Shown one piece after another: positions 6,866 to 61,076 of a stretch of 64,000 nt of DNA. A program made the position numbers and the translations under genes. Each line of letters begins with the position of its first letter. The first letter of the stretch is position 1. The notes beneath the pieces are model-generated. The model was not told where the DNA came from. It did no database searches and saw only the letters and a program-made list of their open reading frames with translations. Location: the NCBI GenBank assembly GCA_963693365.1, contig CAVNZM010000003.1:11939651-12003650 (forward strand), written 5' to 3'. This stretch comes from Amoebidium appalachense (lineage: Eukaryota > Protista > Ichthyosporea).

Positions 6866-9800
6866 CTACGCACTGTCGCTGCCTGCAGTCTTCTTCCTTC
6901 TCTTCCCTGTGGCCTTGCCCTCCCCCTCTGCCTGTCTCTTGGTGCCCCCCTCTGCCCCCTCACTCCTGCCCTCCTCATTGTTCTCCGTTCCATGCCCATC
7001 TACCCCATTCTCTGTGTGTGTGTCCTGCTGTACACTGTCGGTGCCCCTCTCCTCATTTGTGTCCTGCATGCTCCCTGCCTCCTCCTGTGTGTGTGTGTCC
7101 TGCTGCATGCCCTCTACCCCGCCATCCTCTGCTGCAGCCACCTCAGCCACATGTTGCACAGGCATTGGTGCATGCGGGGCACTGAGAGAGATGTCCGGCA
7201 GAGGGGCCACACCCCCCCTCAGGCGCTGGCACGTATAGTCCACTAGGAATGTGCGCTGCAACAGCCTGTCCACCCTCGAGAGGTGCCGCTCCGTGTAGGG
7301 GATCAGCCCTGCATGCCTGTCAGCCGCTGTACCATTGTGCCACAGGCCATGCCCAGAAATTGCCCATAACCTATAGCCTCAGGCGCACACGCAGTGCCCT
7401 ACAGGCACCCTACAGGCGCACACACACGTGCGCCCTTCACATGGCACATGCAAGCATGGGCACGCTGAGCCAGACACGGGCAGATAGACGTGCATGCAGA
7501 ATTCACTCCCACAGGCACACACACGTACACGTACCCTCAAGGATAGCCTTCATGTTCGGCACCAGTAGCAGCTTTGTCGGGGCCACGGTCTGCAGCACAC
7601 AGCCCAGCACGGCCTGCGCCACCTGCACACCCAGTCAGCACCCAGCCAGCACCCTGCATGCACAAATCAACACCCCCCCCCCCCCCCCCCTTTTGCCCAC
7701 ACAGGGCCACTTACCAGGGAGTGCTTAGCGTTTGTGTTCCAGTCCTGCACGTAGCCCAGCAGCTGCCCTAGCTGCTCGCTGCTGAGCCCAGACACCACAG
7801 TGCAGAACGATGCCTGCAGCACCATGTCAGCACCTCGAACACACGGTTTTTTTGTGGCCGGAGGGGGGGGGGGGGGGGGTTTGAATGCGGAACACAGTAC
7901 GAAGTACGCATACACGATGAGAAGCATGGTGCAGGACACATGCAAAGGCAAACATTCAACTATGCAGCATCAGCCATGCGCACAGTATGCGTCATAAGCA
8001 GAGCCCATCCTCAGGGAGGGCCCAAGTCATCAATTGCGTCTGAGTTTCGACCCCTTAGCCCGCGTATATACGACGCTCCAACTCAGACAGCAGCATCAAC
8101 TGAACTTGGGTGGGTCAACCCGTCTTGATCAAAGACGAGCAGGGTTGCTTATGCAAGCAAGGTGAGCAAAACGGTGAAGATGTGTGTGCAAACTAATGCA
8201 GTGCAGCGACAAACGCGTGTGCTTACAGATGCACGACACAGAGCAACCATGCCCGGTTGCATGGAAGTAAAGATGTCTCCACACAGTGGTCTGTCCTGAA
8301 AGGACACCTCTGAAAGAAGACAGGGGGGTTTGAATGCGGAACACAGTACGAAGTACGCATACACGATGAGAAGCATGGTGCAGGACACATGCAAAGGCAA
8401 ACATTCAACTATGCAGCATCAGCCATGCGCACAGTATGGGGGGGGGGGGGGGGGGGGGCATGCATGCAACGAAAGCACACACGTGCACACCAATGCACAC
8501 ACATTCGACACCCATGCACGCATGTCCGTCGTACCCCATGTGCACACATCCACAGCCATTCATATGCAGGCATGGCTACACGTACACACGTACCCACAGA
8601 CACCCATGCACACATCTACACACCCATGCACACACCCCATGCCCACATCTACACACCCATGCACACACATCCACAACAAATTCACAAACGTACACGGGTA
8701 CAGTCACACCCACCCACACCCACACCCACCCACCCACACCCACCCACGCACCTTGCCGTCACCATCCACCAGCAACTCATTAGCCAGGGCCCTGACCCTC
8801 CTCGGGTGGTTGAGTCTCAGGGCCAGGGCCATGGCCTTTGCATAGTCTTTGGCCTGCAGCAGGTTGCCCAGCTCCTGCTCCCTGCAGTGACGTCAGCACA
8901 CAGCCACTATACAGTGTGCCACACAGGCAGCTCACCAAAAGCACACAAAATGGCCGTGCACACACGCATAGTTCCCTCCCCCCCCCCCCTCTCTACCCAC
9001 ACATCGACCAACGCGTACACACATACACACGAGGAAACGCACACACGCACACGAACACACACAAACACACTCACTTTCTTCCCACCATTCTTCCCTCCCA
9101 CTGAGGCAAACACAAATCCCCCTGTCCCAGGCACACACCCACACATTGCCCTTACACGCACTGACATCCCCCCCCCCCCCCCCCCCCCCCCCGCGCAAAT
9201 CACACACACACACTCACCCCCTCCTTCCCCTCCTTCCCCTCCCCTCCTCCCCCACCCCCCCACCCACGCACCCACGCACCCCCCCACCCACGCACCCACG
9301 CACCCACCCACCCACACTCACATGAGCACCAGCTGCTCCGCTTCCTGTGCCCTCCTCTCCTCCTCGACCACGGTTGTGTCTCTCCACACGTTGATCACAC
9401 TATCTCCCCCACCGCTGATTACTTGCTCCTCCGCGCTGTTCTTGCACAGCGCCCACACCTGCACCCCTGTCAGTGCTCATCCCTCCCCTCCCTCCCCTCC
9501 CTTCCTTCCCCCGAAACACACACACACACACACCCGTCCACCTACCCACCCACAAACACACACGAACACAAAGAAACACAAACTCACCCACCCACCCACC
9601 CACCCACCCACCCATCCAGCCACCCTCTTACCTTATCCGTGTGCCCATCCATAGTAGCCACACACTCATTAGTCCTCAGTGTCCACACCTTGACCAGCCC
9701 ATCTGCTGCTGCCGATGCCAGCTGCAGGCCTCTGGTGAGGTACGTGACCTTGAGCACACCTCCAGTGTGCCCCTCCAGTGTCTGTGCACACACACCGTCA

Positions 9801-15361: not shown

Positions 15362-15887
15362 GTTGCCTGCCCGGGCCTGTGCGCGAAACAGGCTGTGTGC
15401 TGCGTGTGGCTCAAACTTGGCTAGGCCCGTATACACACAGCTATACGTAAGTCAACAGAGGACTCCGTTCGTTATTGTAGTTTTGTGCCTTAAGAGTCAC
15501 ACAGTGCGTGTACATGTGCACGTGCATCTACATGGGTGGCAGCATGGTACCGTGTCAACCAATCAGCTGCCACTTATAATGCACTCTTATCCAATCAGTG
15601 ATGGCTCATTGCGTAAGCTGGAAAATGCAACCACTGCACAAAATGCAAGAGTCAGCTGAAAGACGCGAAGCCATGCATCACTCGTTTGCACCCACCTTCA
15701 CGTTGACTGGCCCGCATTAGCACCGCCAAGTCACGCAAGGGTTTGGTACTCAGGGCTGCACACCAAGGCCTTTCTCTTGGCACTCCGAGGCCTTGCTTTA
15801 CACGCAGAGGGCTTGGCTTTACACCACTTCCGCCCACACGCGCACCAGCCCCCAGTCTGGTTCCAGTGGGCCACAGGCACTTTGCTT
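15362..15887. promoter_or_regulatory. Probable bidirectional promoter between TBL3 and spastin
   Basis: About 0.5 kb between divergent start codons; two CCAATCAG boxes (~15560, 15591) and a CACGTG at ~15519. Confidence 0.45.
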
Positions 15888-17112
15888 ATGGCCGAGGCCG
15901 GACGCACGCTGCCGGCCAGCATACGGCGGCAGCGTGAGCTGCACGAGGTTGGCTATGCGGCCGTCAAGCAGGGCCTGGCCGCTGACGAGAGTGGCGACCG
16001 CGCTGCCGCCCTGGCTTGCTACCTGCGGGGCCGCCAGGCCTTCCGCCAGGCCCTAGCTATAACCTTCAGCCCGACAGAGGCAGCCAGGGCCCAGCAGCTG
16101 ACGCAGAAGATAAGGGGCAACATGGAGCTGATAGAGGGCCGTATTAAGGACCTCGAGGACAAAAAACTCGGTGTGTCCCCAGCAGCCACCGGAGAAAAGA
16201 AGGAAATTTTCTGCAGCCGTGCGCAACCTAGACCCCAAGCTGCGAGACATCATACTTAACGAGGTGCTGACCACAGACACGGGCACGTGCTTTGACGACG
16301 TGGCCGGGCTGGAAGCAGCCAAGCAGGCACTGAGGGAGATAGTCATTCTGCCTGCCCTCAACCCGGCCCTGTTCACAGGCCTGCGGGCGCCTGCACGAGG
16401 CCTACTCCTGTTTGGGCCACCGGGCAACGGCAAGACGCTGCTTGCCCGAGCTGTAGCACACGAGGCGAAGGCCACGTTTTTCAGCATCAGTGCGTCCAGC
16501 CTCACCTCCAAGTGGCTGGGCGACAGCGAGAAGCTCGTGCGTGCGCTGTTTGCACTGGCCAGGGAGGTGCAGCCGTCCATCATCTTCATAGACGAGATAG
16601 ACTCGCTGCTCAAGGCCAGGGGTGACGGGGAGCACGAGGCGTCACGGCGGCTCAAGACCGAGTTCCTTGTTGCGTTTGACGGTGTGGCCACGGCCGCAGA
16701 CGAGCGGCTGCTTGTGCTGGGGGCCACCAACCGGCCCCAGGATCTGGACCAGGCGGCCCTGAGGCGGTTCCCCAAGCGGCTGTACATACCCCTGCCCGAG
16801 CAGCCCACCCGGCTGGCGCTGCTGGCCAGCCTTCTGCGGGGCACGGCCCACAGCCTCAGCACGGCGCAGCTGGCGCAGCAGCTGCAGGGCTACTCGGCCT
16901 CGGACATAACGGCCCTGGCCAGGGATGCAGCCCTGGCCCCCGTCAGAGAGCTGCCGGCCCACAAGGTGGCCAGCCTGCAGTCGGCCGGCATCAGGCCCCT
17001 TGTGCTGGCCGACTTCGTCAGCGCCAGCCAGCGCATACGGCCCTCAGTGGGCCCAGACACCCTTAGGGAGTTGGAGGACTGGAACAGAACTTATGGCGAC
17101 CTGCAGGCCTAG
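15888..17112 (+). CDS. SPAST: Spastin (MIT domain plus microtubule-severing AAA ATPase); apparently intronless, with one +1 frame break near 16160-16210
   Basis: MIT-like segment [36 protein letters not shown] (ORF to 16259). AAA ORF 16171-17112 has [21 protein letters not shown], Walker A GPPGNGKT, pore loop SKWLG, Walker [21 protein letters not shown] and [10 protein letters not shown]. Start codon uncertain. Confidence 0.88.
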
Positions 17113-17316
17113 GGGGGAAGTGGCCTTGATGGGCACATAGGCGGGGCCATACATGTGGGTTCTTGGCTGCTGGGCTAAACACTAGCAACCTCACCTAGAG
17201 AACGGGGTTACCCTGCTTGGATGCCCGTGAGTTGAGTGAGTGAATGAATGAACGCACATCGTGTGGTGTGCCTTGGATACCACAGCTCCCCATCCACGAA
17301 CCCCCCCCCTTCCCCC

Positions 17317-17986
17317 CTGCTGTCTGAGTTGGAGCGTCGTATATACGCGGGCTAAGGGGTCGAAACTCAGACGCAATTGATGACTTGGGGCCTCCCTGAG
17401 GATGGGCTCTGCTTATGACGCATACTGTGCGCATGGCTGATGCTGCATAGTTGAATGTTTGCCTTTGCATGTGTCCTGCACCATGCTTCTCATCGTGTAT
17501 GCGTACTTCGTACTGTGTTCCGCATTCAAACCCCCCCTGTCTTCTTTCAGAGGTGTCCTTTCAGGACAGACCACTGTGTGGAGACATCTTTACTTCCATG
17601 CAACCGGGCATGGTTGCTCTGTGTCGTGCATCTGTAAGCACACGCGTTTGTCGCTGCACTGCATTAGTTTGCACACACATCTTCACTGTTTTGCTCACCT
17701 TGCTTGCATAAGCAACCCTGCTCGTCTTTGATCAAGACGGGTTGACCCACCCAAGTTCAGTTGATGCTGCTGTCTGAGTTGGAGCGTCGTATATACGCGG
17801 GCTAAGGGGTCGAAACTCAGACGCAATTGATGACTTGGGCCCTCCCTGAGGATGGGCTCTGCTTATGACGCATACTGTGCGCATGGCTGATGCTGCATAG
17901 TTGAATGTTTGCCTTTGCATGTGTCCTGCACCATGCTTCTCATCGTGTATGCGTACTTCGTACTGTGTTCCGCATTCAAACCCCCC
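17317..17986 (+). mobile_element. (C)n-associated structured element, subfamily 1, copy B (about 1.5 tandem units, period 450 bp)
   Basis: TGTCTGAGTTGGAG occurs at 17321 and 17771. Both units end CATTCAAACCCCCC, and the copy is flanked by C runs. Confidence 0.88.
17322..17409 (+). ncRNA. Candidate hammerhead ribozyme with rearranged strand order (repeated at 17772-17859, 8001-8088 on minus, ~42001-42088, ~56114-56201, ~58382-58469)
   Basis: Three core strands: GUCUGAG-U-U / GGAG (17322-17334); GGGUC-GAAA-CUCAGAC (17357-17372); CUCC-CUGAGGA-UG-GGCUC (17392-17409). Stems I, II and III can all form, and subfamily 2 shows compensatory changes. Confidence 0.6.
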
Positions 17987-22849: not shown

Positions 22850-25800
22850 CAGGTGCATATGCCCATCCAGGGGAGATCCACATATACGATAGTAGGGCGT
22901 GGATATGCGGGTAGGGTGCCAAATTGGGCATATGGGGGTCCGGATATGTATTTTGAGGGAGAACGTAAGTGATGTAGTGAGGAGGCGGGGGGGAAGGGGG
23001 GGGTAGTGGGGGTGGGGGTGGAGGGGGAGCGGCCTGCGTAGGTACGGCTAGGCCGGGGAGGGGAAGTCGGAGAGTGGGTAGAGTGGGTGGCTGGGCAGGC
23101 ATAGCTTGAGGCATGGGGGAGGGAGGGGGAGGGGGTTGTGGAAGATGTTTTGGAGGGGCAGGGTGAGGTTGAGGTTGAGGTTGAGGGGGGCGGGGGGAGG
23201 GGGCGTGCGCGAAGGAGGCGGTGGGGGTGGGGGTGGAAGGGGAGGGCCTGAACGACGAATTCTGCATCCTCAGGAAGATCTTCTTCCGCAAGTGGGTGTT
23301 GCCCAGGTGCGGGGGGATCTTGTGGTTGTGGGAGAGGTGGAAAGGGTAGGATAGCATCGTCCAAGGGGCGGTCATCTCGGTTGATAAATGGTTTTTTTTT
23401 TTTTTTAACCCATCGTGATGAACCGGATTTTTCATAAATTTACCGCGTGGAGTGACAAGTTAGTACAGTTCAGCATCGCCAGGGATGCGATGGGCAAGTG
23501 GCGGTATGGACCTTGCCACATGTGGAGTAATTTACCAGTGCGGTAGCGTTGGGTTACTGGTGTGTGCACCCACACTTGTTGGCCAGGTGTATATATGCGC
23601 ACGCTATGAGAGTGAGCATCATCATATTGCTTTTGCTTTGCTCTCGCTTGACGAAAAGTCTCCTGTGAGGCCAATCGTGCATCCTGCAAGCGGTGTACAA
23701 GTTGTTGGGTGTACACATTTTCAGGGAGATGGGCACGTGCCGTGGGGTGCTCAAATTCCAGCTCAACGGGAAGTCTGGGGTCAATACCAAAAAGGAGGTA
23801 AAAGGGGGAATTACCTCTGCTGGCATTGAGGGAGGGGCGCAACGCAAAAAGTGCGGTGGGTAGATAAATATCCCAGTCCTGGTGGTGGGAGGAAACGTAC
23901 ATGTGCAGGACACGGATAATATCCATATTTGCCTTTTCCACCAAACCATTGGACGAGTGGTGGTACGGTGGGATAACGATACGATCTATGCCCAGTAGGC
24001 GGCATACATCGGACATAAGTTTGCCGGTGAAGTTATTTTCGGCGTCTACAATCACACGCCGGGGAAGAGAATAGCGGCAGAATATTTCATCCACGAGTGT
24101 GCGTGCGATGGTGTCTGCCTTTTTATCCGGGATTGGGAAAGCTTGAATTCAATTGGTTAAATTGTCAACAACAACGAGAATATATTTATTGCCGTTGAAA
24201 GAAGGAGTCAGTTTAGTGAGAAGGTCAACTGATATCTCCTCGAATGGTTGTGTTGGTAAGCGGGGGGAATATTGGGAACTTCACGGGCCAATCCGTGGTG
24301 AGGATCGCGGCCGGCGTGGCAGGTTGTGCATGATGCAACATAGTGGTGTATGTCGCTGTACATGGTCGGCCAATAAAAACGTTCGCAGATTTTCTGATAG
24401 GTTTTAGAAAATCCTAAGTGGCCACCAAGTACGCTATCATGGCAGGCCTCAAGTATTTTACGTTTGAAACCGCGTGGTACCACGATTTGAAAGCTTGGTC
24501 CATGTGCTTGAGCACCCGGTCGGGTGGGTACAAAGACATGGTATAGGGTGTTGTTGTGCACCATATACTAGTGTCACGTTCAAGCACGAGACGGCGTGCG
24601 AGTTTATCATGCTCTGGTAGGATATTGTGCACCAAATAATCTATAATGGGGCGCACATCAGGGTCTGCGAGCTGTGCTTGTTGTAGCTTGTTGGGCTTAA
24701 TGGTTTCGAAATTGGGAACAATCGCGGAGACAAAAGGACAGGATTGGTGGGTGGAAGAGGGGGAGGGGGGCGGGGGGAGGAGAGGAAAATCGAAGGATCG
24801 GGTGGGGGGGGGGGGGGGGGGGGTAGGGAAGGAGTTGGGGAGGGGCCATGTGACGGAATGGTCTTGCGGGGAAGAGGGGGGTGGGGGGGCAGCGGGGGGT
24901 CCCGGAGGAGGAGAGGAGGAGGGGGATACGAGGGGGGCATACACGAGAGGAACAGCGGGGGGAAACTGCGCCTGCCTGGACAGTGCGTCTGGGACCACGT
25001 GAAGCTTGCCGGGCCTATGTACAATATCAAAATCGTATTCAGACAGCTGTAACGCCCAGCGGGCTAGACGGCCAGTCAGCTGCTCCTTGATCATGAGGAA
25101 CTGTAAAGCACTGTGGTCGGTAATCATAATAAAGCGATTACTGTAGACATAGGGGCGGAATTGCTGCACGGCATACACACATGCAAGTGCTTCCAATTCT
25201 GTGGGTGCATATTTTTTCTCAGCGCCATGATGTAGTGCGCGGCTTGCGTATGCAATTATGGGGTATTCGTCAGCGTTATTACCCATTTGATAGAGCACGG
25301 CACCCAGGCCGCGGGTGGAACCATCACATGCAATGTAGAATGGTTTAGAAAAATCGGGGTGGTGGACCACGGGGTCGCTAAGAAGCAACTGCTTGAGTTG
25401 TTCAAATGCGGCAGTGTGCTCTTCTGTCCAACGCCATTCAGCACCAATGAAGGTGAGATCACGTAGTGGTTTTGCGGTGGTGCTAAAATCTTTGCAAAAG
25501 CGGCGATAGTGGCCCGCAAATCCGAGGAAAGATAAAATTTCCTTTGGATTTCGTGGGGGGATCCAATCACGAACGGCTTGTAATTTTTTGGGTTCAACGC
25601 GTATGGCTTTTGCAGATATGAGGTGGCCGAGATAAACGGCTTCTGGGACTGCAAATGAGCATTTGGTCATATTCAGGCGTACGCCGTTTTCAAGTAGGCG
25701 TTTGAAACGATTTCAAGATGGCTTAAATGTTCATCAAAATTCTTGCTGTATATCAAAATGTCGTCCAAATAAACGGTTACGAAATTCCAAGTTAGGCCGT

Positions 25801-27200
25801 GTAGCACGAAACTCATCATGCGTTGATAATCAGCGGGTGCATTTTTTAACCAAAAGGCATGGCGACAAATTCAAAGTGACCATCAGGTACTGTGAATGCG
25901 GTAACGGGTGCTGAATCAGGGTGCATCAGCACTTGCCAATATCCCGATCTTGCGTCACATAACGTAAAGACAGATGCTCCGCGTATATCGTCAAGTGAGT
26001 CATCTATGCGGGCCATGTGGTAGAGGGTTTTTAAAGTGATTCGATTGGCCGCCCTCACGTCAAAGCAAAAACGAATTGTGCCATTTTTCTTCTTAACCAA
26101 TACGATTGGGTTCTTATAAAGACTGCGAGATTTGCGTATAACTCCGAGTCCTTTCTCAAGCATATCCTTGACTTCTTTGGATATAACTTGGCGTTCGGTT
26201 TCTGAATAGCGTCGTGTTTTGCATGACATCGGTTTTGAATTTGTGAGGGTGATGTAGTGGTAGTGATTGGTGGCTTTGGTCATCGAGCCAATCACATCGC
26301 TGTTTGTAAGTTCTTTGTATTTTTGTAAGAGAGCGAGCATGCAATCTTGTTGATCGGGGGATAAATGCGATAAGTGGGTATCCCGTAGTTCTTCGATGTC
26401 TTTTTCAGTCATTGTTTTTGAAGGTTCAGGAGCAACACTATCATAAATGCCCTCATAACCAAAAGTTTGATTATAAGTGGGATCATGCGATTTGGCAGCC
26501 GGAGGGGGCTGGGGGGGGGTTCTTCAGAATCCGCTATGCGTGCACGTTTGTTGTGGGGTTGCAGGGCAGCCACCAAGTGCGGTGCTTGGGCGGCGGAACG
26601 TGCACGTGTAGAGTGAGATAAAGCAGCTTGGTGTGCATATATCTCTTGCACCAGCGTGTTTTCCATATTGTTTTTGAGTTATGGGGGTCTATCGTAATTT
26701 CGATATCTGGGCACGGAGCAATGTATGCAATATGTCCGACAGTGCACACGGCAATAACCAAGGTTTTGTGTAACTTGATGGGGTGATTGGTTAAGTTCAT
26801 CACGTGCAAGTAACATTTCTAGTCGGGGAGTGAATCATCTAGGTGGTACCCAACGTCAAGACCATCCAATTTGCACAAGTGTTTGGGGTCTTTACTTGGG
26901 GAAATTTCAACAAGTTCGTAAAAGTGCTGTTTTTGTTAGCCTGGGATATAGCAGGGGATATCATATGCTGTGTGAGGTGGAATTAAAAAAAAATTATCAG
27001 CACTTAAAAAAAATTATCAGCACACCGCACATAATACGTGGTTTCTGGTGTGGAGGGCGGAAGGGGATTTTGATTGGCGGCCGAGATAGCGGCCAAAATC
27101 GCTTGAGCAGGGGAGATATAGGCATGAGGGGGTGGCCTACAGTACCACTCGGCGGTACGTGACAAAGGTTTAGCAGAGGGGGGGTGAGAAAAAGAACATC
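22850..27200 (-). mobile_element. Degenerate Ty3/gypsy LTR retrotransposon pol (RT-RNaseH-integrase order) with several frameshifts
   Basis: RT: NPIVLVKKKNGTIRFCFDVR, DARSGYWQV, TAFTVPDGHFEFVAMPFG, VYLDDILIYS (~25745-25775). RNase H: ACDGSTRGLGAVL, YAPTELEALA, TDHSAL, RLARWALQL. Integrase zinc finger HDSVLGGHLG...CTTC, core NGLVEKAN, and GPY motif WQGPYR. Boundaries approximate. Confidence 0.9.
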
Positions 27201-30311: not shown

Positions 30312-33300
30312 TTTATCCTTCTTCTTCTGGAATGCTCGGACACTGGGCCCCCAAAAGGGCCTCCCCCCCGGGACACTCGACGATAAAATCAGCTACATAC
30401 AACAACAGACAAACAACCACACGTTTACAGTGATTTGCGAAACACAGTTTAAAAACCACCACAAATTCAACTCTACATTGGTCGACACATCCACACACCC
30501 CGGTTACGCGAAAAACCGAGGCATTATTGTACTTGCCGCACCACACGTGAGAGTGAAGTGCAAACCGGTAGCAAAAACGGAATTCTCGGTTTCTATAGAG
30601 TTTCTTTCTAATGTTTTTACTTTTGTATATTACCCACCATCTATGTCGGTTGTCGAATTGACTCACGAGTTGTCACAGTTACCAATGTCCACTGTTATTT
30701 TAGGTGATTTTAACACGCGACTCCACCACACAGACACACTGCAAGTGAGTGTCGGGTACCCATCTAAGCCCCCGGAGCGTGCTATCCCTTTAGCAAGGTA
30801 TGTCCAAAGTCACACTTTGCGGTTCCCTCAAATATCCCATGCCCACAACAACGACTGGGGAGTGGCCTTTTGGCCATCAACCATGTCAAAACTCTCTCTC
30901 CCTCCTAACCTCTCTAGGTCATCTGACCACTCTCCTATCCTTTTCCTACCTAAGATCTCCCTTGATCTGCTCCCCCCTCCCCCTCCCACCTTTCGCCTCC
31001 GTCTATCCCAGCTTAAGTCACAGTGGGGTAGAGTTGATGTATGTGTATGCTATGCTACGAAACACCCTATATATATGCGCCTATTAGAATCTGCACAAGC
31101 CAGGCCAGATTCACATCTCGTACTAGATACATGCACTAACTTTATTGTTGATGATTTGATAGATCTCGGTGATTATGCTGGCGGTGGTAGGAAGGAATAT
31201 CCCGATGCTCTCTTGTTACCAAACACCACTCCCGCTAGACTAGGTGAACCCCTGTCTCAAAAGGAAAGCTTGCGCCGGCTTGCTAGTATGAATCGATTTG
31301 GCCCCCCTGCTCGTATTATTGGTGATACCACTGGAGACCCCCTCATAGACTCTGATAAGTATTTCTCGGAACTGTTTAAAGATAGGACCCCCGCTCAGAA
31401 ACCTATTGTGTGGCCTGTAGACCCATCTATCCCCATAGAATCGATCCTCCCCTTTTTCAGTCCCGATGCCATATGGTCTGTGATATCTAGTTATAGCTCT
31501 AGTAAGTCTTGTGGACCTGATGGACTCCCTGCTGGGTTTCTTAAAATCCTTGTTCCCTCCTACCCACAAAAGGAAAGTGATCGTGCTATTAAACCTGATC
31601 TTACTATCATGTTAAGCTCTCTCTTTTCTTGGTGTGTTAAATGTGGACATGTCCCGTCATCTTGGTTAGATACCTTAGTGATCCCCATAGTTAAGAAGGA
31701 CTCTGAGGGCCCCATATCATCCTTTCGCCCCATTACACTAACCCAGGTTGTTCGTAGATTCTTTGAAGCTTGCTTACTTAGGTTATTTGCACCGTGACAT
31801 CACCCTAGGTTTCAATCTATTCTTCACATACACCCATGCCAATCCGCTTTTCGTAAAAACAATTCATGTTATGTTCAAATAATGGCACTGCACGATTCTA
31901 TGCAAGTTGGTGCACAATATGTTGGCTTTATTGATTGGAAAACTGCTTACGATTCTGTCTCCCCTGGTCTCCTATGGGAAAAGCTTGCTGCACGGGGTGT
32001 ACCACACTGCATTGGTGTTCTGTTAGAAGCACTCTTGTCTCAAACCTATGGTAGAGCTGTGGTTAATGGGCATCTTTCATATGGTTTTGCTCGTACTAGA
32101 GGTCTCTTGCAGGGTTCATTGCTTAGCCCCTTTTTGTTTAACCTATTTATAGATGATTTGGCTGTCAAGATTTACGCCGAAAACGATGACCCTATTAATA
32201 ACTTTCCGCCTGCACTTCTCTATGCTGATGATCTGTCCCTCCTTGCCCGTACCCCTAGACGCCTGCAAAGATTGTTCGATGTAGTGTCAGAGTGGTGCAA
32301 GGCAAACCTTATGATCCTTAACATAGACAAATGTGGTGTTCTTGTACCTGATATAGCTAACAATTTACACACATTTACATTATCATCTAAACCTGTACCT
32401 ATAGTTCCAGAATACAAATATCTTGGTGTTCCGGTTGATTCTGTTGGTGTTATGTTTCCCCATATGGTCGAAAAGAGGGTAGAGTTGGCTCGTAAGCGGT
32501 TAGCTTTCTTCTCGGCTAATATTTTTAAAGACACACCCCTCCATCCTTCTATTAGACTTACATTTATTCGCACTTTTGTCTTCCCGGCATGTGAATATGG
32601 TTTACCCCTTCTCGCCGCTTGGATCAAGAAAGAGAGAACTAGAGCGCTTAAACCCTTGGCAAATTTCCTTGAAGCAGAAGTTGCCTCCTTTCTATCTAAC
32701 AACTGTTGTAAACCTGGGCCTGTAACGCTCTCGATATATGGTCTGGTCCCAATAGCTGCTAGAGTATCCTATCTCGCGCTGAAATTCAATAAGCACATAA
32801 GCCGCTTAAAGAAGTATTTGCCCTCCCACCCTCTCTTCTCTATCCGACCTGTCCCCTCCTCACCTCTCCCCTCTTTCCTCCCCTCTCTCTCCCCTTCTCC
32901 CCTGGGCCGGGCACAAATACAAATAAACCCCGCAATAGTGTGTGTGTGACTTTGGACTGCCACTTACTTATTAAACATGTACACAATCACAAGATAATCA
33001 CGCAATATAACAAATGGAAAAAGATACCACACGACACTAGACCCGATGAAAGCATACACCTTGAAAAACTAAGCCTTATGTCTCGTTTTATATATACTGA
33101 CCGCCTCAACCATATTGCCAAATATGGCACTCGCAAGTGTATAACACCTAAATACATATTACCTTCCTGTAGAACTGGTCTTTCTCTAGCTGATGGTATT
33201 ATTGATCAATTACCACGCTTTTACTGTACACGTGCTATACAGTGGAGATCTAATAAGTATAAGGTGGCATCATTTGCATGCCCAAACAACACACACACAC

Positions 33301-33342: not shown

Positions 33343-34051
33343 TGTTATTTTGTGTGGGTAAACGGAGAAGCAGAGAGCACAGATGGGTGTTATGTAAAAC
33401 ACAACACAAAGACACACGGGAAAAACACAACCGGAGAGGAGGAACGATTTCTGGAACCATAGGAAGTGAATACGACTGCTTATGATTTATTTCAAGATGA
33501 GGTCCCTTTTATACTTGGGAATGTGAAACGATAAACCAATCAAAAGAATGAAAACTATGAGTGTAAAATATATCGAATAAAATGTCTGTCGACATTTAGA
33601 ATATAAAACTCAATCCTCCAATGAAAGAAACTTCTAATAAAAGCACGGAAACATTTAATAAAATGAAACCACTTATGTAACTATTAATTCATAACATATA
33701 TTTATACATGTTCTTATCATAACACGTCTAAATATAATTATTCCTAATAGTTGAAGAACATAGCACAATGCTACGTCGTGGGAAAGAAATGAGAAAGGAA
33801 TGTAAGTTACTATATTTGGGAAAATACAAACGAGATATGATTGGATGACATATATAGATTTTGACGCAAACGACAATACGTGTGCGCGAGCTAAGTATGT
33901 CGATACGTACACAGATCTAAGATGTCGTGTACACGGAAACGGAAAAGAAAGAAAGAAATGAAGAAAGGAAAAAGGAAACAAACTACAACAACTAATAAAT
34001 AAATACCAAACTCAACTTCTAAGTCTTGCTGAGAATTAAGTGAAGATGACA
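33343..34051 (-). repeat. Copia 3' LTR
   Basis: Direct repeat of 39029-39737 with TG..CA ends; preceded on the minus strand by the polypurine tract. Confidence 0.95.
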
Positions 34052-34532
34052 TCCCCACTCAAGGGTTGGAAGTTGGGTTCTCGTGAAGTTTGTTGATGTG
34101 ACTGTTGATGTTAAGACTTTCACACATGTAGAAGTAGGTGCCGTGAAGTCACAGTCAAGTTTCCCCACTCGAGAAGACAATGGAGAAGACTTGAAGGTGC
34201 AAGCCGGGGAAGAAAACCAAAACGGAAGAAGCACACAACGACGGTTGCCTCTGAAGACTCGGAAGATGACGGTAGCCAATGACGTGATATATAAATATAT
34301 ATAGAAGAAACAACTAGTGTATGTGTGACGTGTTGGTGGCTAATGATAAATACATTATATATATGGTGGTATATAAATAAACGACGGATGGTGGAGAAGA
34401 AATCCCCACTGAAGATGCACACACTGAAGATCGATGAAGACAGCAGTAGACTTTCGTTGGGAGGTGTCTCTACACGGTGATGTGTAGACCACTGGCCAGG
34501 GCCCCAACCTACTTGAAGACCACTGTAGATGA

Positions 34533-34581
<49 letters not shown>

Positions 34582-34582
34582 C

Positions 34583-37500
34583 TCAGTCACGAAGACTGAG
34601 TGAATCACGGTGCTGCTCGTGGGAGGGCCCGGGCAGGGGCTTGGTGAAGATGTCAGCCACGTTGTCTTTGCTGGACACGTAGGTGACGACCACATCCCCA
34701 CTCTTGATGTAGTCCTTCGTGTTGTGGTAACGGACTGCAATGTGTTTGGTCCGGTGCTTGATGCTGTTGGTGTGCAGGAGGGCAATGGTGGACTGGTTGT
34801 CACAGTAGACGGGGGTGGGGTCGGTCATCGGGTAGCCGAGTTCACGGAGGAGATCACGGTGCCAGATGACGTTTTGAACAGCAGCATTGATGGCCAGAAG
34901 CTCAGCCTCGGTGGTGGATGTTGCCGTGATGGACTGCAGCTTCGAATACCATGTGATGGGTATGCCCTTGAAGAAGATGACGTATCCGGTGGTTGAACGA
35001 CGGGTGTTGGGGCAGTTGGCAAAGTCAGCATCAGAATAACACTCCAGCAAGGGGGTGTTGTCGTCGGAAGCAGACTTGTCGTAGTGAAGGCCGAGGTTGG
35101 AAGTGCCGATGAGGTACCGAACTACACGGAGTAGACATTCCCATGCAAGTTTGGTGGGGTTGGCACTGAATCTACCGAGGTAGCCGATGGCAAAGGAGAT
35201 GTCGGGCCGGGAACAACGAGCAACCCACAAAAGACGGCCGAGTAGTTCACGGTAGGGAACCTTGATGGGTGGTGAGTCGTTCTCGTTGATGGTGATGACG
35301 GTGCCGACGGGAATGGGAGTAGCCTTGGGGTGAGCATCGTTGAGGTTGAAGTCTCTGACGATGTCGTTGATGTAGGATTGCTGAAGCAGCTTGAGGTGAC
35401 CGGGGGTGTGGATGAGCTGGGTGCCAAGGAAGATGTCGGGAAGGTCAACCTTGCAGAGAGCTGACTTCATGATGTGGTCTACTAGATCCTTGGTGTGGGA
35501 GGAGTTGGCCGTGCAGATGATGATGACGTCGTCCACATAGTTGCCAGTGAGGATGATGTCACCGTTGGGGAAGGTCTTGATGTAGACACATGGATCTGAA
35601 CGGAGACGTTCGAGACCGTGAGCAAGGAGGACCTTGTCGAAGTACTCATACCAGGCCAGTGATGCTTGCTTGAGCCCGTAGAGTGCCTTCTTAAGTTTCC
35701 AGACCTTGTGTTCGTTGCCGGGGGTGATGAACTTGAAGCCAGGTGGTGGCTCAATGTAGATGTCTTCTTGAAGAGGACTGTTGAGGAAGGCAGTTGAGAC
35801 GTCGAGTTGATGAATCTCATGGTTGCCGTCCACACCGATGGCAAGGAGGGCACGGACGGAGGAGGACATCACCACGGGGGAAGAGGTGTCACCGTAGTCA
35901 ACACCGTAGACTTGAGTGAAGCCCTTTGCAACACCACGAGCTTTGATCTTGGTGTCACCGGCTGAGTTGAGGACTTTCTCAGTCACAATCCACTTGAACT
36001 TGATGATGTTGGCACCAGGGGGGGATCAACAATGGTGAAGACATCCTTGGTGATGAAGGCTTGGTACTCGGAGGTGAGGGCAGCTATGACGGCATCACCG
36101 TTGGGACCGTTGCAAAGCTTTTGAATGCCCTTGGGGAGCTGGTCAATGTTGATGGTCGGTGCTACGATGCTGACCAGTGCCGTTGGAGTCTTGGTGAGAC
36201 GTGTAGACCGACGAAGGTTGGGCTTGGGGGGGTCCTTGAGGGGGGTGGTGGCCGGGTAGGTGGTGGAGGCCGGGATAGGGGCATGGAAGCCAGGAATAGG
36301 ACCGGTGGTGAGGGGGGCATCGGTGTCCACAGGGCTGCTCGTGGCCGAGTGGAAGGTGGGGGACCCAGGACGAACCGGAGTCATGTAGCCGGGTTGATGC
36401 ACAGCAACGGGGGGGGCCGGCAGCAAGGGTTGTTGGCCAGTGGGGGGGGGGCTCGGGGGAGGCACGGGTTCAACCGGGGCTGGTTGGTTGTGCCAGGACG
36501 GTTGGGAGATGACCACAGACGGAGTTTCATCGTCGTCGTCGGAGGGGGGGTCCAATGTCGGCAGATCGGGTTTGGGGGGAACGGAGACCTGATTGGTGCT
36601 GCCCGTGAATTTCGACTCGTCGAAGATCACATCACGGCAGATCTTGATTTGGTTGCTGGCAAGGTCGAGGATCTTGTGTGCCTTGGAGGGTAGGTCCCAG
36701 CCGACGTAGGTGCCGACTCTGACGGTTGATGCCAGCTTGTTCCTCTTTGACCGGGGAACATGGACATAGGCAGGGGAGCCGAACACGTGGAGCTGGGAGA
36801 CGTCGGGTTTGAAGCCGTGGAAGGCCTCGAAGGGAGTGTTGCCGTTGGCAGCAGATGACGGTGTGACGTTGATGATGTAGCTTGTATGCTTGAGAGCAGC
36901 AACCCACAACTTGGGAGAGAGAGGTTGGTCCTTGTCGGCATGGAGGAAGCAACGGACTGTCTCTTGCAGTTCTCTCATCTTCCGTTCAACAACACCATTG
37001 TGTTGTGGTGTGTCGACGGGGGCAAACTCCATGATGATGCCCTTCTGCTTGCAGTAGGCCTCGGTGTCCTTGGAGGTGAATTCAGAGCCGGAGTCAAACC
37101 GAAGATGGGTGACGATCTCAGGTGTCTGACGTTCGATGGTTTCAACGAGAGACTGAATGTGGCTGAGGGTTTCACCACGGTTGTAAAGGGGGAACACGGT
37201 GGTGTAACCGGTGGCATCACAAACACACACCAGAGCAACCTTGTAGCCTCCGTAGGAAGCACAGGGAGCTTCGAAGACGTCCAGGTGCCACTTAGCACCG
37301 GGAATGGTGAACTTGGAACGGGTGCCGGGAAAGGGGGCCTTGGTGGTCTTGCCAGACATGCAGCCGAAGCAGTCACTGTTGTCGGGTGACTTGAGGGAGG
37401 GGGGCATGCCGATGACAAGCTCATCCTTGGCCATCCTGGTGACGGTGGAGAGGGCACGGTGGCCGAGACGGTTGTGCCAAAGGGTGAGGTCGTCGGGTGG

Positions 37501-38952
37501 TTGAGTCCTTGCTGTGTAGGCTTGGACCCCCGGGTGTTTAGGAGTCTCAATCACATAGTCAGTGATGTAGTAGAGACCGTCGAGGGGGGTGAGATCTGTA
37601 ATAATGTCACCATTACGGCTGTAGAGGAACGACGGGTGGTTGTCTGTATCGTCACAATGACCTAGGAGGCCGGCAGCTGATGCCATGGAGGTAGACACGA
37701 GGAAAGACGGTGCCTCGGGTACGTAGTAAGCATTGATGCTGCACGGTGTTGGGTGGCCGTTGTAGTGCAGTGTTATGTTGATGATGCCACGTTGTTTGGC
37801 ATTGACTGTGCCGAGGCCGTGAATGGGGGTGGGAGGACACGGGGTAAGGGAGGAGAAATACTCCTTGATGGGGCAGATGTGTGCATTACAAGCACTGTCC
37901 CAGACGGGGTCGTTACTGTCAGGTGTGCCGGTGGAGGAGATGAGTGCAAATTTCACACTCTTGTCACCTTTCTCCTGCTTGGCACGACGAGCAACTGTGC
38001 AGCCAGGCTCCGGGCATGCTGTGATGTGGTGGGGCTCATGGCAGTAGGAACACTTCACACTGTTGGTGTTGTGCTGTCGGTTACGGTTGTCCCTGTTACC
38101 ACGGTGGTAAGGGGAAGTTGAACGGGGGCCGGGTGACTTGGAGGGAGGACGAGGATCACGGGAACGGGACGGGGAACGGTGAGGTGTATGCTCACGTCGA
38201 GGAATACGGTTACGGAGGTCACCGGGGGGAAGCACTCTGCTCTGGAGTGCACGGAGGGGACGGTTGTTGACGGTTGCACCTGTGCCTGCGTCGATGAGGC
38301 CGGCACGGATTTCAGCTCCTCGGATGTCACTGATGAGCATGTTGAAGGACGGGTAGGCCTTGTTGTTCATCCAGTAGTCGGAGCAGAGACGTTCAATGTC
38401 GGGGCAGACCAGGGCTGTGTTCTTCCGGATGTGGAGGAAGAACTTACGTACGACATCCTTGTGCTGGACGGGTTCGTCGAGGCAGGCAAGTGTCGTAGCC
38501 AGACGTTGGAGACGGGTGAGGTATGCTGTGACGTTGGGGTAGTCTCGTAGTTCAAGCTCCTCGAAGGTGACTTGAATCTGGGTGACTCGGGCCTCCTTCT
38601 CTGCTACATACGCCATACGTAGGTTGTGGAAGACTTCACCACCGTGGACACCGTCTTGCATCCGGCCGGAGTCGTAGAGCTCGGTCGGGTGGACGGACTG
38701 GTTGAGGATCTGGTCGAGGACGTCGGAAGCTTTCTTGTAGGAGTCCTTGGTGGTGTAGCCTAGCCACTGGTTGGCTTCAGCGCCGTCAACCCACTGTGGC
38801 CTCTTGATAGCGTCAACGAATTTCTCGGCAATGGTGGTTCTAATGAACCGGTGAATGAGTGGCTCCCACTCGAAATAATTAAGACGTTTCTCGTCTCGTT
38901 TCTCGGACGGATTCCATATTGGAAGGTTGATATACGACGGTTTGTCAGTCAT
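34583..38952 (-). CDS. Copia gag-pol polyprotein (gag, CCHC knuckle, protease, integrase, RT, RNase H) with one frame break in a G7 run at 36018-36024
   Basis: Zinc knuckle CSYCHEPHHITAC; protease VWDSACNAH; GAG-pre-integrase WHNRLGH...CFGC; integrase RFDSGSEF...PQHNGVVER; RT KARGVAKGFTQ, QLDVSTAFL, KALYGLKQ, YVDD; RNase H YSDADFA, STTEAE, RTKHI, ADIFTK. One extra C restores DPPPGANIIKFKWIVTEK. Confidence 0.95.
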
Positions 38953-39028
38953 GATTGAAGCAGTAAGACTGAGAGATTTTCGCGGTTGTAGCGAGATTGT
39001 GTGTTAGCGTGCAAAGGGGCCGTAAACC

Positions 39029-39737
39029 TGTTATTTTGTGTGGGTAAACGGAGAAGCAGAGAGCACAGATGGGTGTTATGTAAAACACAACACAAAGACA
39101 CACGGGAAAAACACAACCGGAGAGGAGGAACGATTTCTGGAACCATAGGAAGTGAATACGACTGCTTATGATTTATTTCAAGATGAGGTCCCTTTTATAC
39201 TTGGGAATGTGAAACGATAAACCAATCAAAAGAATGAAAACTATGAGTGTAAAATATATCGAATAAAATGTCTGTCGACATTTAGAATATAAAACTCAAT
39301 CCTCCAATGAAAGAAACTTCTAATAAAAGCACGGAAACATTTAATAAAATGAAACCACTTATGTAACTATTAATTCATAACATATATTTATACATGTTCT
39401 TATCATAACACGTCTAAATATAATTATTCCTAATAGTTGAAGAACATAGCACAATGCTACGTCGTGGGAAAGAAATGAGAAAGGAATGTAAGTTACTATA
39501 TTTGGGAAAATACAAACGAGATATGATTGGATGACATATATAGATTTTGACGCAAACGACAATACGTGTGCGCGAGCTAAGTATGTCGATACGTACACAG
39601 ATCTAAGATGTCGTGTACACGGAAACGGAAAAGAAAGAAAGAAATGAAGAAAGGAAAAAGGAAACAAACTACAACAACTAATAAATAAATACCAAACTCA
39701 ACTTCTAAGTCTTGCTGAGAATTAAGTGAAGATGACA
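39029..39737 (-). repeat. Copia 5' LTR
   Basis: Direct repeat of 33343-34051; followed on the minus strand by GGTTTACGGCCCC at the PBS position. Confidence 0.95.
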
Positions 39738-41814: not shown

Positions 41815-42211
41815 CTTTACTTCCATGCAACCGGGCATGGTTGCTCTGTGTCGTGCATCTGTAAGCACATACGCGTTTTTCGCTGCACTGCATTAGTTTG
41901 CACACACATCTTCACCGTTCTGCTCACCTTGCTTGCATAAGCAACCCTGCTCGTCTTTGATCAAGACGGGTTGACCCACCCAAGTTCAGTTGATGCTGCT
42001 GTTTGAGTTGGAGCGTCGTATATACGCGGGCTAAGGGGTCGAAACTCAGACGCAATTGATGACTTGGGCCCTCCCTGAGGATGGGCTCTGCTTATGACGC
42101 ATACTGTGCGCATGGCTGATGTTGCATACTTGAATGTTTGCCTTTGCATGTGTCCTGCACCATGCTTCTCATCGTGTATGCGTACTTTGTACTGTGTTCC
42201 GCATTCAAACC

Positions 42212-42212
<1 letters not shown>
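41815..42212 (+). mobile_element. (C)n-associated structured element, subfamily 1, copy C (5'-truncated single unit)
   Basis: Near-identical to 17588-17982; ends CATTCAAACC followed by a C run. Confidence 0.85.
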
Positions 42213-42242
<30 letters not shown>

Positions 42243-44534: not shown

Positions 44535-44759
44535 AAAACAAACAAAAAAGAATGAAAAAAAGAGCGAGAGAAAGTTGTTTCTCGTATGTTACCAGCACGT
44601 AAGCAAGTATTTTATTCATTCACAATACATTGTTAGGTATGTGTAGTATATTATGGTGTTATTATTTTTTGGTTTACAATATGGTGTCCACGTTCCCAAT
44701 ATATCGTTATTGTCGACCAACTACTATGGTAGTATAATGCTATGATGACAATTTGTGCA

Positions 44760-45540
44760 TGCGTTACTTATAAGCATCGGGTTTTTTCACTAACTACCCA
44801 CAGAGTAGCTTCTAGCATGATAAATTCACCACAAATTATAAGGGGGATGGTGAATGTGCCCTTGGAGTACGAGGGTCACACGAAAAAAACACAACGTTGT
44901 AGCTCGTATTGAACCCCCCTTGTAGCATAGTATATGTCCATGTGTTACCTAGGCATTTTTGGTTTTTTCAATAACTACCCACAGAACAGCTTCTCGCACG
45001 AGAAATTTACCACAACGTTTATGGGGGGGATGGTAAATGTGCCCCTGGAGTACGAGGGCCACACGAAAAAAACACAACGTTGTAGCTCGAATAGAACCCC
45101 CCTTGTAGCATAGTATATGTACATGTGTTACTTACACATTATTGGTTTTTTCAATAACTACCCACAGAACAGCTTCTAGCACGAGAAATTTACCACAAAG
45201 TTTATGGGGGGATGGTGAATGTGCCCCTGGAGTACGAGGGTCACACGAAAAAACCACAACGTTGTAGCTCGTATAGAACCCCCCTTGTAGCATAGTATAT
45301 GTACATGTGTTACCTAGACATAATTGGTTTTTTCAATAACTACCCACAGAACAGCTTCTAGCACGAGAAATTTACCACAACGTTTATGGGGAGGATGGTG
45401 AATGTGCCCCTGGAGTACGAGGGTCACACGAAAAAAACACAACATTGTAGCCCGGATTGAAACCTCCCTGTACCATATACATCATATATCATGCAGCATG
45501 TGTTACTTTCGCGTTATTGGTTTCCTAGCACGAGATATTC
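44760..45540. repeat. Tandem repeat, ~181-183 bp unit, about 4.3 copies
   Basis: TAACTACCCACAGA at ~44791, 44972, 45155 and 45337; GGAGTACGAGGG.CACACGAAAAAA in every unit. Confidence 0.9.

Positions 45541-48837: not shown

Positions 48838-61076
<12,239 letters not shown>

Follow-up and report, generated by a model that had tools for sequence, protein, structure and literature searches.

A non-coding 450-nucleotide (nt) repeat in the genome of the ichthyosporean Amoebidium appalachense appears to carry a hammerhead ribozyme with a rearranged, interrupted core. We propose that the core is complete, that its blocks bearing the cleavage site (S), GAAA (G), and CUGAGGA (C) stand in the order S-G-C, and that stem II is formed with a remote upstream strand. 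Likely self-cleavage after a GUU triplet would free the 450-nt units of what is probably a non-autonomous Penelope-like retroelement. This reading, which draws on sequence comparison and folding, is in our judgment a probable one. All copies described here lie in the window, the stretch of 64,000 nt that was analyzed.

A hammerhead core in S-G-C order

A descriptor specifying S-G-C order, a stem III of at least 5 bp, and a stem I of at least 3 bp found six cores in the window, whereas 300 block-wise dinucleotide shuffles yielded 12 cores in total, or 0.04 expected per shuffled window. The six represent only two independent sequence types, subfamilies 1 and 2, which are ∼81% identical across 179 nt. 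They lie in six copies at five loci, with two copies at 17317-17986. CUGAnGA, GAAA, and a UH site with A15.1-U16.1 are present in all six cores, flanked by stem III (9 bp in subfamily 1 and 13 bp in subfamily 2) and stem I (4 and 3 bp). The order differs from the circular ones of types I, II, and III (CGS, GSC, and SCG). A search of Rfam at E values up to 10 returned no hammerhead and no match over the repeat copies; a covariance model built from the window copies retrieved the six copies and two fragments.

A sequence-only reading of this DNA had described the core at 17322-17409 as a non-circularly permuted hammerhead, and the excess over shuffled sequence bears this out. The letters and coordinates it gave are right (GUU at 17328-17330, GAAA at 17362-17365, CUGAGGA at 17396-17402, and stem III), as is the 450-nt tandem unit (17537-17986). 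We likewise found the change of stem I from GGAG/CUCC to GGG/CCC between subfamilies, the C-to-U change in the 42-kb copy, and the 10-nt palindromes in the linker of both subfamilies, and we agree on the predicted cut after GUU. A GACUC at 59.9 kb, cited as improving stem II, is indeed present, but the fragment that contains it lacks every partner strand and therefore cannot support covariation.

The extent of the ribozyme had to be redrawn. The copy at 17322-17409, which differs from the corresponding part of the second unit at one position (G17390 versus C), is truncated, and the complete predicted ribozyme spans 17707-17867. The BLAST block common to both subfamilies runs from 17698 to 17876 (X to X'), with the 3' tip in addition. 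This shared block begins ∼70 nt upstream of the motif as first drawn and coincides with the predicted complete ribozyme. Helix X, a hairpin, a helix bridging stems I and II, a kink-turn, and the retroelement context all go beyond that motif. Of 21 variant positions listed, three lie within the ribozyme, whose 161 nt make up 36% of the unit, and none in its core, a weak indication in that the positions are not independent. The subfamily 2 copy at 56046 may extend upstream to ∼55640; the intervening ∼400 nt (55640-56045) are unique sequence, probably the remainder of a longer unit.

Table 1. Elements of the predicted ribozyme and copies of its carrier repeat in the window
Feature	Positions	Strand	Details
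Complete predicted ribozyme	17707..17867	+	X - hairpin - Y - P - kink-turn - S - linker - G - P' - C - X'
Helix X, 5' strands	17707..17718	+	8 bp with 17860-17867; 17716-17718 form 3 bp with 17854-17856
Hairpin between X and Y	17721..17741	+	8 bp
Y, remote 5' strand of stem II (positions 10.1-10.5)	17744..17748	+	pairs with 17807-17811
Helix P strand and kink-turn bulged strand	17750..17764	+	P pairs with 17831-17839; bulge 17760-17762, G17763, A17764, partners G17829, A17830
S block: stem III strand, GUU, stem I strand	17772..17784	+	predicted cut 17780/17781
S-to-G linker	17785..17806	+	10-nt palindrome at 17788-17797
G block: stem II 3' strand, GAAA, stem III 3' strand	17807..17822	+	GAAA at 17812-17815
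C block: stem I strand and CUGAGGA	17842..17852	+	CUGAGGA at 17846-17852
Motif of the sequence-only reading: S, G, and C blocks in the 5'-truncated first unit	17322..17409	+	lacks X 5' strand, hairpin, Y, and P 5' strand
5'-truncated first unit of partial tandem, pseudo-LTR-like	17317..17536	+	
Full 450-nt unit, subfamily 1	17537..17986	+	ends at C-run
Subfamily 1 copy, 116-nt partial and full unit	7874..8438	-	sense within Utp13-like WD40 gene
Subfamily 1 copy, 5'-truncated	41815..42215	+	ribozyme complete
Subfamily 2 copy	56046..56300	+	ribozyme complete; Y 56091-56096, predicted cut 56126/56127, CUGAGGA 56188-56194
Subfamily 2 copy, truncated within X	58326..58568	+	inserted at C-run ending an older copy
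Old 3' fragment	54167..54295	+	begins at CUGAGGA
Old degenerate 3' fragment	58201..58325	+	
Old 3' fragment	59897..60030	+	C block and X' only

Stem II and the helices around the core

The pairing of stem II is where our model departs most from the motif as first drawn. Strand Y, upstream of the core, pairs with the 5' end of the G block entirely by Watson-Crick pairs; in subfamily 2 one C-G pair becomes U-A and a sixth pair is added. It is present in five of the six cores, compared with 0.003 expected (1 in 300 shuffled windows); the exception is the 5'-truncated copy at 17322. The stem II of a hammerhead is closed by a purine 10.1-pyrimidine 11.1 pair, and in the same five cores the first pair made with Y is G-C, this closure being absent from the truncated copy. 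Besides Y, four of the six cores have a helix X of at least 7 bp, which occurred in none of the 300 shuffles; the 58-kb copy is cut within X. Pairing of 17750-17759 with 17831-17839 makes helix P, which lengthens stem III into a rod. Aligned to the full model, 41 pairs are paired in 98% of 161 cells, while slid controls reach 28 to 48%, and two-sided changes occur in stem II, helix P (one), and stem III. The alignment holds four distinct, related rows from two subfamilies, so that covariation is consistent with the model without being significant.

Could the core instead be a plain type SGC hammerhead, in which CUGAGGA, an inserted UG, and a GGCUC/GGGUC helix follow directly on one another? 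The descriptor permits such a stem II in all six cores (four to six pairs, with wobbles), one- or two-nt insertions are allowed for by Eckert et al. (PMC10085705), and in the truncated first unit it is the sole stem II available. As a working helix, however, GGCUC/GGGUC fares poorly: it shows no two-sided change, contains two wobbles, and loses one pair in subfamily 2. Its duplex energy is −5.6 and −2.6 kcal/mol in subfamilies 1 and 2, against −8.5 and −7.7 kcal/mol for stem II with Y. When a full copy is folded, its strand sits in helix X (pair probability 0.98 for the 8-bp part and 0.32 for the 3-bp part), and its own pairing has a probability of 0.0. The pairing is also absent from the metagenomic and split Naiad examples described below. 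An uninterrupted block C, with the stem II strand at most 1 to 2 nt from CUGAnGA, can thus be drawn only as a weak, non-covarying helix, and we give the plain type SGC reading little credence. Scoring stem II by nested folding with the rod masked gave near-zero probability for both versions.

We conclude that stem II is probably completed by upstream strand Y and that the wobble-rich version is probably wrong. The two extra nucleotides and the wobble-rich stem II, which the sequence-only reading had listed as caveats, vanish once Y is used. Because Y pairs from upstream and the strand following CUGAGGA enters a separate helix, core block C is split in this model. A transcript of 17300-17420, whose copy lacks Y, is therefore predicted not to cleave alone.

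Two further elements accompany the core in the window. Between P and stem III, the sequence of each of the five complete copies fits a kink-turn, in which G:A and A:G pairs come after a bulge of 3 nt, in agreement with the published definition and rules, which give an angle of 50 degrees (PMC8191799). The kink-turn letters differ between subfamilies: −1b:−1n is A:U, and 3b:3n is U:U in subfamily 1 and A:G in subfamily 2. In addition, the S-G linker of both subfamilies contains a perfect 10-nt palindrome, as found in 1.7% and 0.5% of letter shuffles, with self-duplex energies of −11 and −12 kcal/mol.

The resemblance might also be due to chance, or the RNA might be a box C/D-like kink-turn RNA without a hammerhead role. 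The motifs are short, and the kink-turn of subfamily 1 is of the C/D type. That of subfamily 2 is Kt-7-type and lacks the box C/D letters, for which reason a box C/D snoRNA was dropped as a candidate. Against chance stand the shuffle control and pattern scans of viral sequences (1, 108, and at least 121 loci), in which none of the 230 loci listed fit the full model; the Rfam result likewise gave no match over the copies. We regard this explanation as scarcely credible.

The same layout in other elements and its published relatives

Nine of 54 Naiad consensus sequences (PMC8557442), with pairings read by eye, have the same X-hairpin-Y-P-S-G-P'-C-X' layout. Five are Amil, Anas, Aacu, Obim, and Ovul; the other four stand in file parts 9, 12 (two sequences), and 19. 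The nine fall into about six independent groups that differ in their stem II pairing, for example GGCUCC/GGAGCC, GACACC/GGUGUC, and GACGCC/GGCGUC. Stem I and stem II each contain one mismatch in Naiad_Aacu, and helix X is weak in the Octopus elements (Obim and Ovul). Also by eye, Naiad Bfor is a variant of the split layout with a 2-bp stem I, six more consensus sequences are of type CSG (Nbra-1, -2, -3, Smim, and those in parts 13 and 15), and several others resemble further variants. The consensus places viewed covered 49 of 62 for CUGAUGA, 23 of 23 for CUGACGA, 25 of 25 for CUGAGGA, and 37 of 43 for CUGAAGA, matches that span line ends being missed. The Chlamys consensus matches viewed contained no permuted core, although (C)n targeting is a Chlamys trait; the cores seen were canonical and had been listed before (PMC8557442).

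Craig et al. (2021) described Naiads as having no canonical hammerheads, with eight "half cores" (available part of PMC8557442). Standard descriptors cannot match the split S-G-C order, which would account for Naiads having been reported without hammerheads and with only half cores seen; the split layout likely supplies the ribozyme missing from them. The type CSG Naiads come from nematodes and a spider and have clean CSG hammerheads at their ends (PMC8557442, File S5). Some arthropod Naiads (File S5, parts 16 to 19) have S-G-C order, a 7-bp stem I, a helix after A9, and a local hairpin before GAAA; they are possibly a further variant.

One of 14 metagenome pattern matches, at 640-860 on the minus strand of contig L006, has all the helices with different letters: 14 pairs in stem III, 5 in stem I, 12 in Y, 5 plus 5 in X, and 11 in P, with a fold z score of −4.0. 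The covariance model from the window copies did not retrieve it, and it is therefore a structural analogue found by pattern and, by that test, not a sequence homologue. The other 13 matches were set aside as chance. The L006 rod is 24 bp long and has no kink-turn; kink-turn and palindrome are both absent from L006 and from most Naiad examples. Two contigs from the viral scans (L071 and L089) carry hammerhead-like motifs in canonical order just upstream of a start codon.

The sequence-only reading had asked whether the strand order was new. The order itself is published as type SGC, found as HRIMA-1 and its variants in viroid-like metatranscriptome contigs by Eckert et al. (2023; PMC10085705), with cleavage validated and a fourth helix bridging stems I and II; a split block C was not found in print, as far as the sources were available. 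Our model shares with type SGC the strand order, the conserved core, the covalent link between stems I and II, and a helix bridging their other sides. It poses the same geometric puzzle, since in both the bridging helix can join stem III directly although the ends lie far apart in the crystal structure (PMC10085705). In contrast to type SGC, block C is interrupted: an upstream segment provides the stem II strand, and A9 continues into helix X. The linker is 18 to 22 nt rather than ∼3 nt, a kink-turn is present, and the source is a genomic DNA repeat rather than a metatranscriptome.

Type CSG, published from two metagenome examples (PMC10085705), has the same cyclic strand order, and the split form can be described as CSG opened between A9 and 10.1 and closed by X; type CSG itself keeps the stem II strand beside CUGAnGA and has neither helix X nor the hairpin. 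As in the pseudoknot hammerhead of Zhan et al. (2024; PMC11300833), a remote strand supplies helix II while the core remains a hammerhead; in that ribozyme, the loop of an additional stem-loop acts as the pairing partner, and the available text describes no S-G-C order or helix X. In the available parts of these papers and of PMC13725137, PMC10162972, PMC13159263, and bioRxiv 10.64898/2026.07.22.740005, we found no split block C and no permuted hammerhead in Naiad or Chlamys elements, although the Eckert variants could share the layout. We therefore regard the S-G-C order as known and the split-core layout as unreported as far as found in this literature, most likely a variant of the known hammerhead.

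If correct, the model would overturn the stated assumption of Eckert et al. that CUGAnGA and the adjacent stem strands can be separated by at most 1 to 2 nt (PMC10085705), and it would add a layout beyond the six enumerated permutations. According to the available part of that paper, the genomes of known organisms yielded no permuted types, with the exception of a single doubtful GCS case. The model would bring into eukaryotic genomes a class of non-circularly permuted RNAs so far reported almost exclusively from environmental sequences, and the absence of reported hammerheads from Naiads would be accounted for.

The carrier repeat and a proposed mode of action

Insertions of the non-coding 450-nt unit share a 3' end at a C-run and vary at the 5' end. 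All five larger copies end at a C-run, in a genome rich in C-runs, and the copies have no poly(A) tail or LTR. Partial tandems of 1.26 and 1.49 units occur, with a C6-7 run in the internal joint; the head-to-tail joint was present in all four sequencing runs examined (three samples). The 17-kb insertion is flanked on both sides by C7-TT-C6 (17303-17317 and 17981-17995), which resembles a target-site duplication but is of low complexity. Copies lie in sense inside a Utp13-like gene (PF08625) and a GPN-type GTPase gene (PF03029). More than half of the unit's words occur in 20 listed runs from eight studies with six organism labels, 6 of the 20 possibly from the same source.

Chlamys and Naiad elements, including their non-autonomous forms, are characterized by pseudo-LTR tandems, 5' truncation, and (C)n targeting, and Chlamys inserts at microsatellites, (C)n or (CA)n (PMC8557442). 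The repeat resembles them in its partial tandems, 5' truncation, and (C)n targets, and in the way of their non-autonomous derivatives; the ribozyme layout shared with the nine Naiads stands at the 3' end of their consensus sequences. It differs from them in that no coding partner was found here and in its host, which is not an animal and falls outside the hosts named in the available part of that paper. The 10 window frames scanned yielded neither a Penelope-type reverse transcriptase nor a GIY-YIG gene, and a 57-amino-acid frame upstream of the 56-kb copy gave only repetitive proteins, with matches inflated by repeats. The carrier is probably a non-autonomous Penelope-like element.

Were the ribozyme as described, its carrier might still be something else, either an integrated viroid-like circle or a repeat mobilized by a LINE or LTR element. 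Type SGC is known from viroid-like contigs (PMC10085705), and the window holds LINE-like, copia, and gypsy-like genes with no Penelope gene among the frames scanned. The partial tandems, the fixed 3' end at C-runs, and the want of a poly(A) tail or LTR speak against such carriers, as does the occurrence of the same layout at Naiad 3' ends, and we consider them improbable. The repeat has affinities with non-LTR retrozymes as well (bioRxiv 10.64898/2026.07.22.740005), which are short non-coding tandem units with one hammerhead each. Together with the dimeric type I Penelope hammerheads (PMC4209133), these also share the palindrome, a proposed dimer cleavage, and circular intermediates. There, however, the palindrome lies in loop III, whereas here the order is non-circular and the palindrome lies in the linker between stems I and II; the type I hammerhead that marks each non-LTR retrozyme unit is absent from the repeat.

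In the mechanism that we propose, helix P and stem III would form one long rod whose apical loop bears the cut site, the stem I strand, the stem II strand, and GAA. This loop would dock at the base of a rod, on the two flanking strands Y and CUGAGGA, held together there by X. By rough arithmetic (arms of ∼70 and ∼25 Å at 50 degrees), the rod base lies ∼57 Å from the ends of stems I and II, compared with ∼30 Å for a short rod of the Octopus type. By this estimate, links of 0 to 3 nt would not let so long a rod fold back on itself, and cleavage would therefore most likely be mutual, in a dimer whose two units dock loop to base, each bent by its kink-turn and braced by the palindrome. For other Penelope-like elements, hammerheads that depend on dimers have already been proposed (PMC4209133). 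Alternatively, the RNA might fold in cis once partly melted, or adopt a CSG-like fold spanning neighboring units of a tandem. Cut units would then circularize, the internal C-run would act as primer for reverse transcription at C/G tracts of the genome, and partial tandems would arise as copying continued around the 450-nt circle; a circular template primed in this way would explain the C-run 3' ends, the 5' variation, and the tandems alike.

The main challenge to this mechanism is that the RNA may derive from a hammerhead yet be dead or very slow, its fold kept as a structure for recognition or priming by reverse transcriptase. None of the five larger window copies starts at the predicted cut, and of 89 loose ends, the 22 listed all begin elsewhere as well. 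Stem I is short, at 4 bp (3 bp in subfamily 2), the site is GUU, and the geometry in cis looks strained. The break between A9 and 10.1, for which we found no tested precedent in the literature, may slow or abolish catalysis, and low in vitro activity has been reported for minimal Penelope hammerheads (PMC4209133). Against loss of function, both subfamilies retain CUGAnGA, GAAA, the UH site, and the R10.1-Y11.1 closure, as do L006 and Naiads with unrelated stem sequences, and related Naiads carry textbook type CSG cores. We therefore hold a dead or very slow RNA to be unlikely, and an active ribozyme remains our preferred reading.

A broader conjecture, which we find doubtful enough to offer only tentatively, is that a four-strand hammerhead opened in its core is the ancestral ribozyme of Penelope-like elements with an N-terminal endonuclease, from animals to unicellular opisthokonts, and that here it works only as a dimer bent by the kink-turn and braced by the palindrome. 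If this were true, dimer-only cleavage would cut tandem transcripts into circle-forming units and leave single copies in host introns silent. The role of ribozymes in Penelope-like retrotransposition could be tested with a 170-nt RNA, and a dimer-gated ribozyme could be of possible use in engineering.

Other features of the window were noted in passing. A spastin-like gene (MIT and AAA domains) at 15660-17112, with a repeat copy 205 nt downstream of its stop codon, has an unbroken 325-codon frame and lies opposite an intron-rich WD40 gene region; the closest named matches to its protein are from Capsaspora (63%) and early-branching fungi (62%), which suggests an opisthokont host outside the animals. 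A degraded gypsy-like element on the minus strand (23432-26523) retains RNase H, integrase-like, and reverse transcriptase frames, and a LINE-like element with a reverse transcriptase (PF00078; 29679-33485) is split by a stop at 31795-31797. The copia-type LTR element at 33343-39620, on the minus strand, has one in-frame stop or frameshift between its integrase and reverse transcriptase frames; its two 592-bp LTRs are identical, and its insertion is therefore very recent. A THAP-domain frame (PF05485; 47680-48339, minus strand) possibly belongs to a DNA transposon, and a tandem repeat at 44751-45523 consists of roughly four copies of a ∼182-nt unit with 83 to 90% identity.
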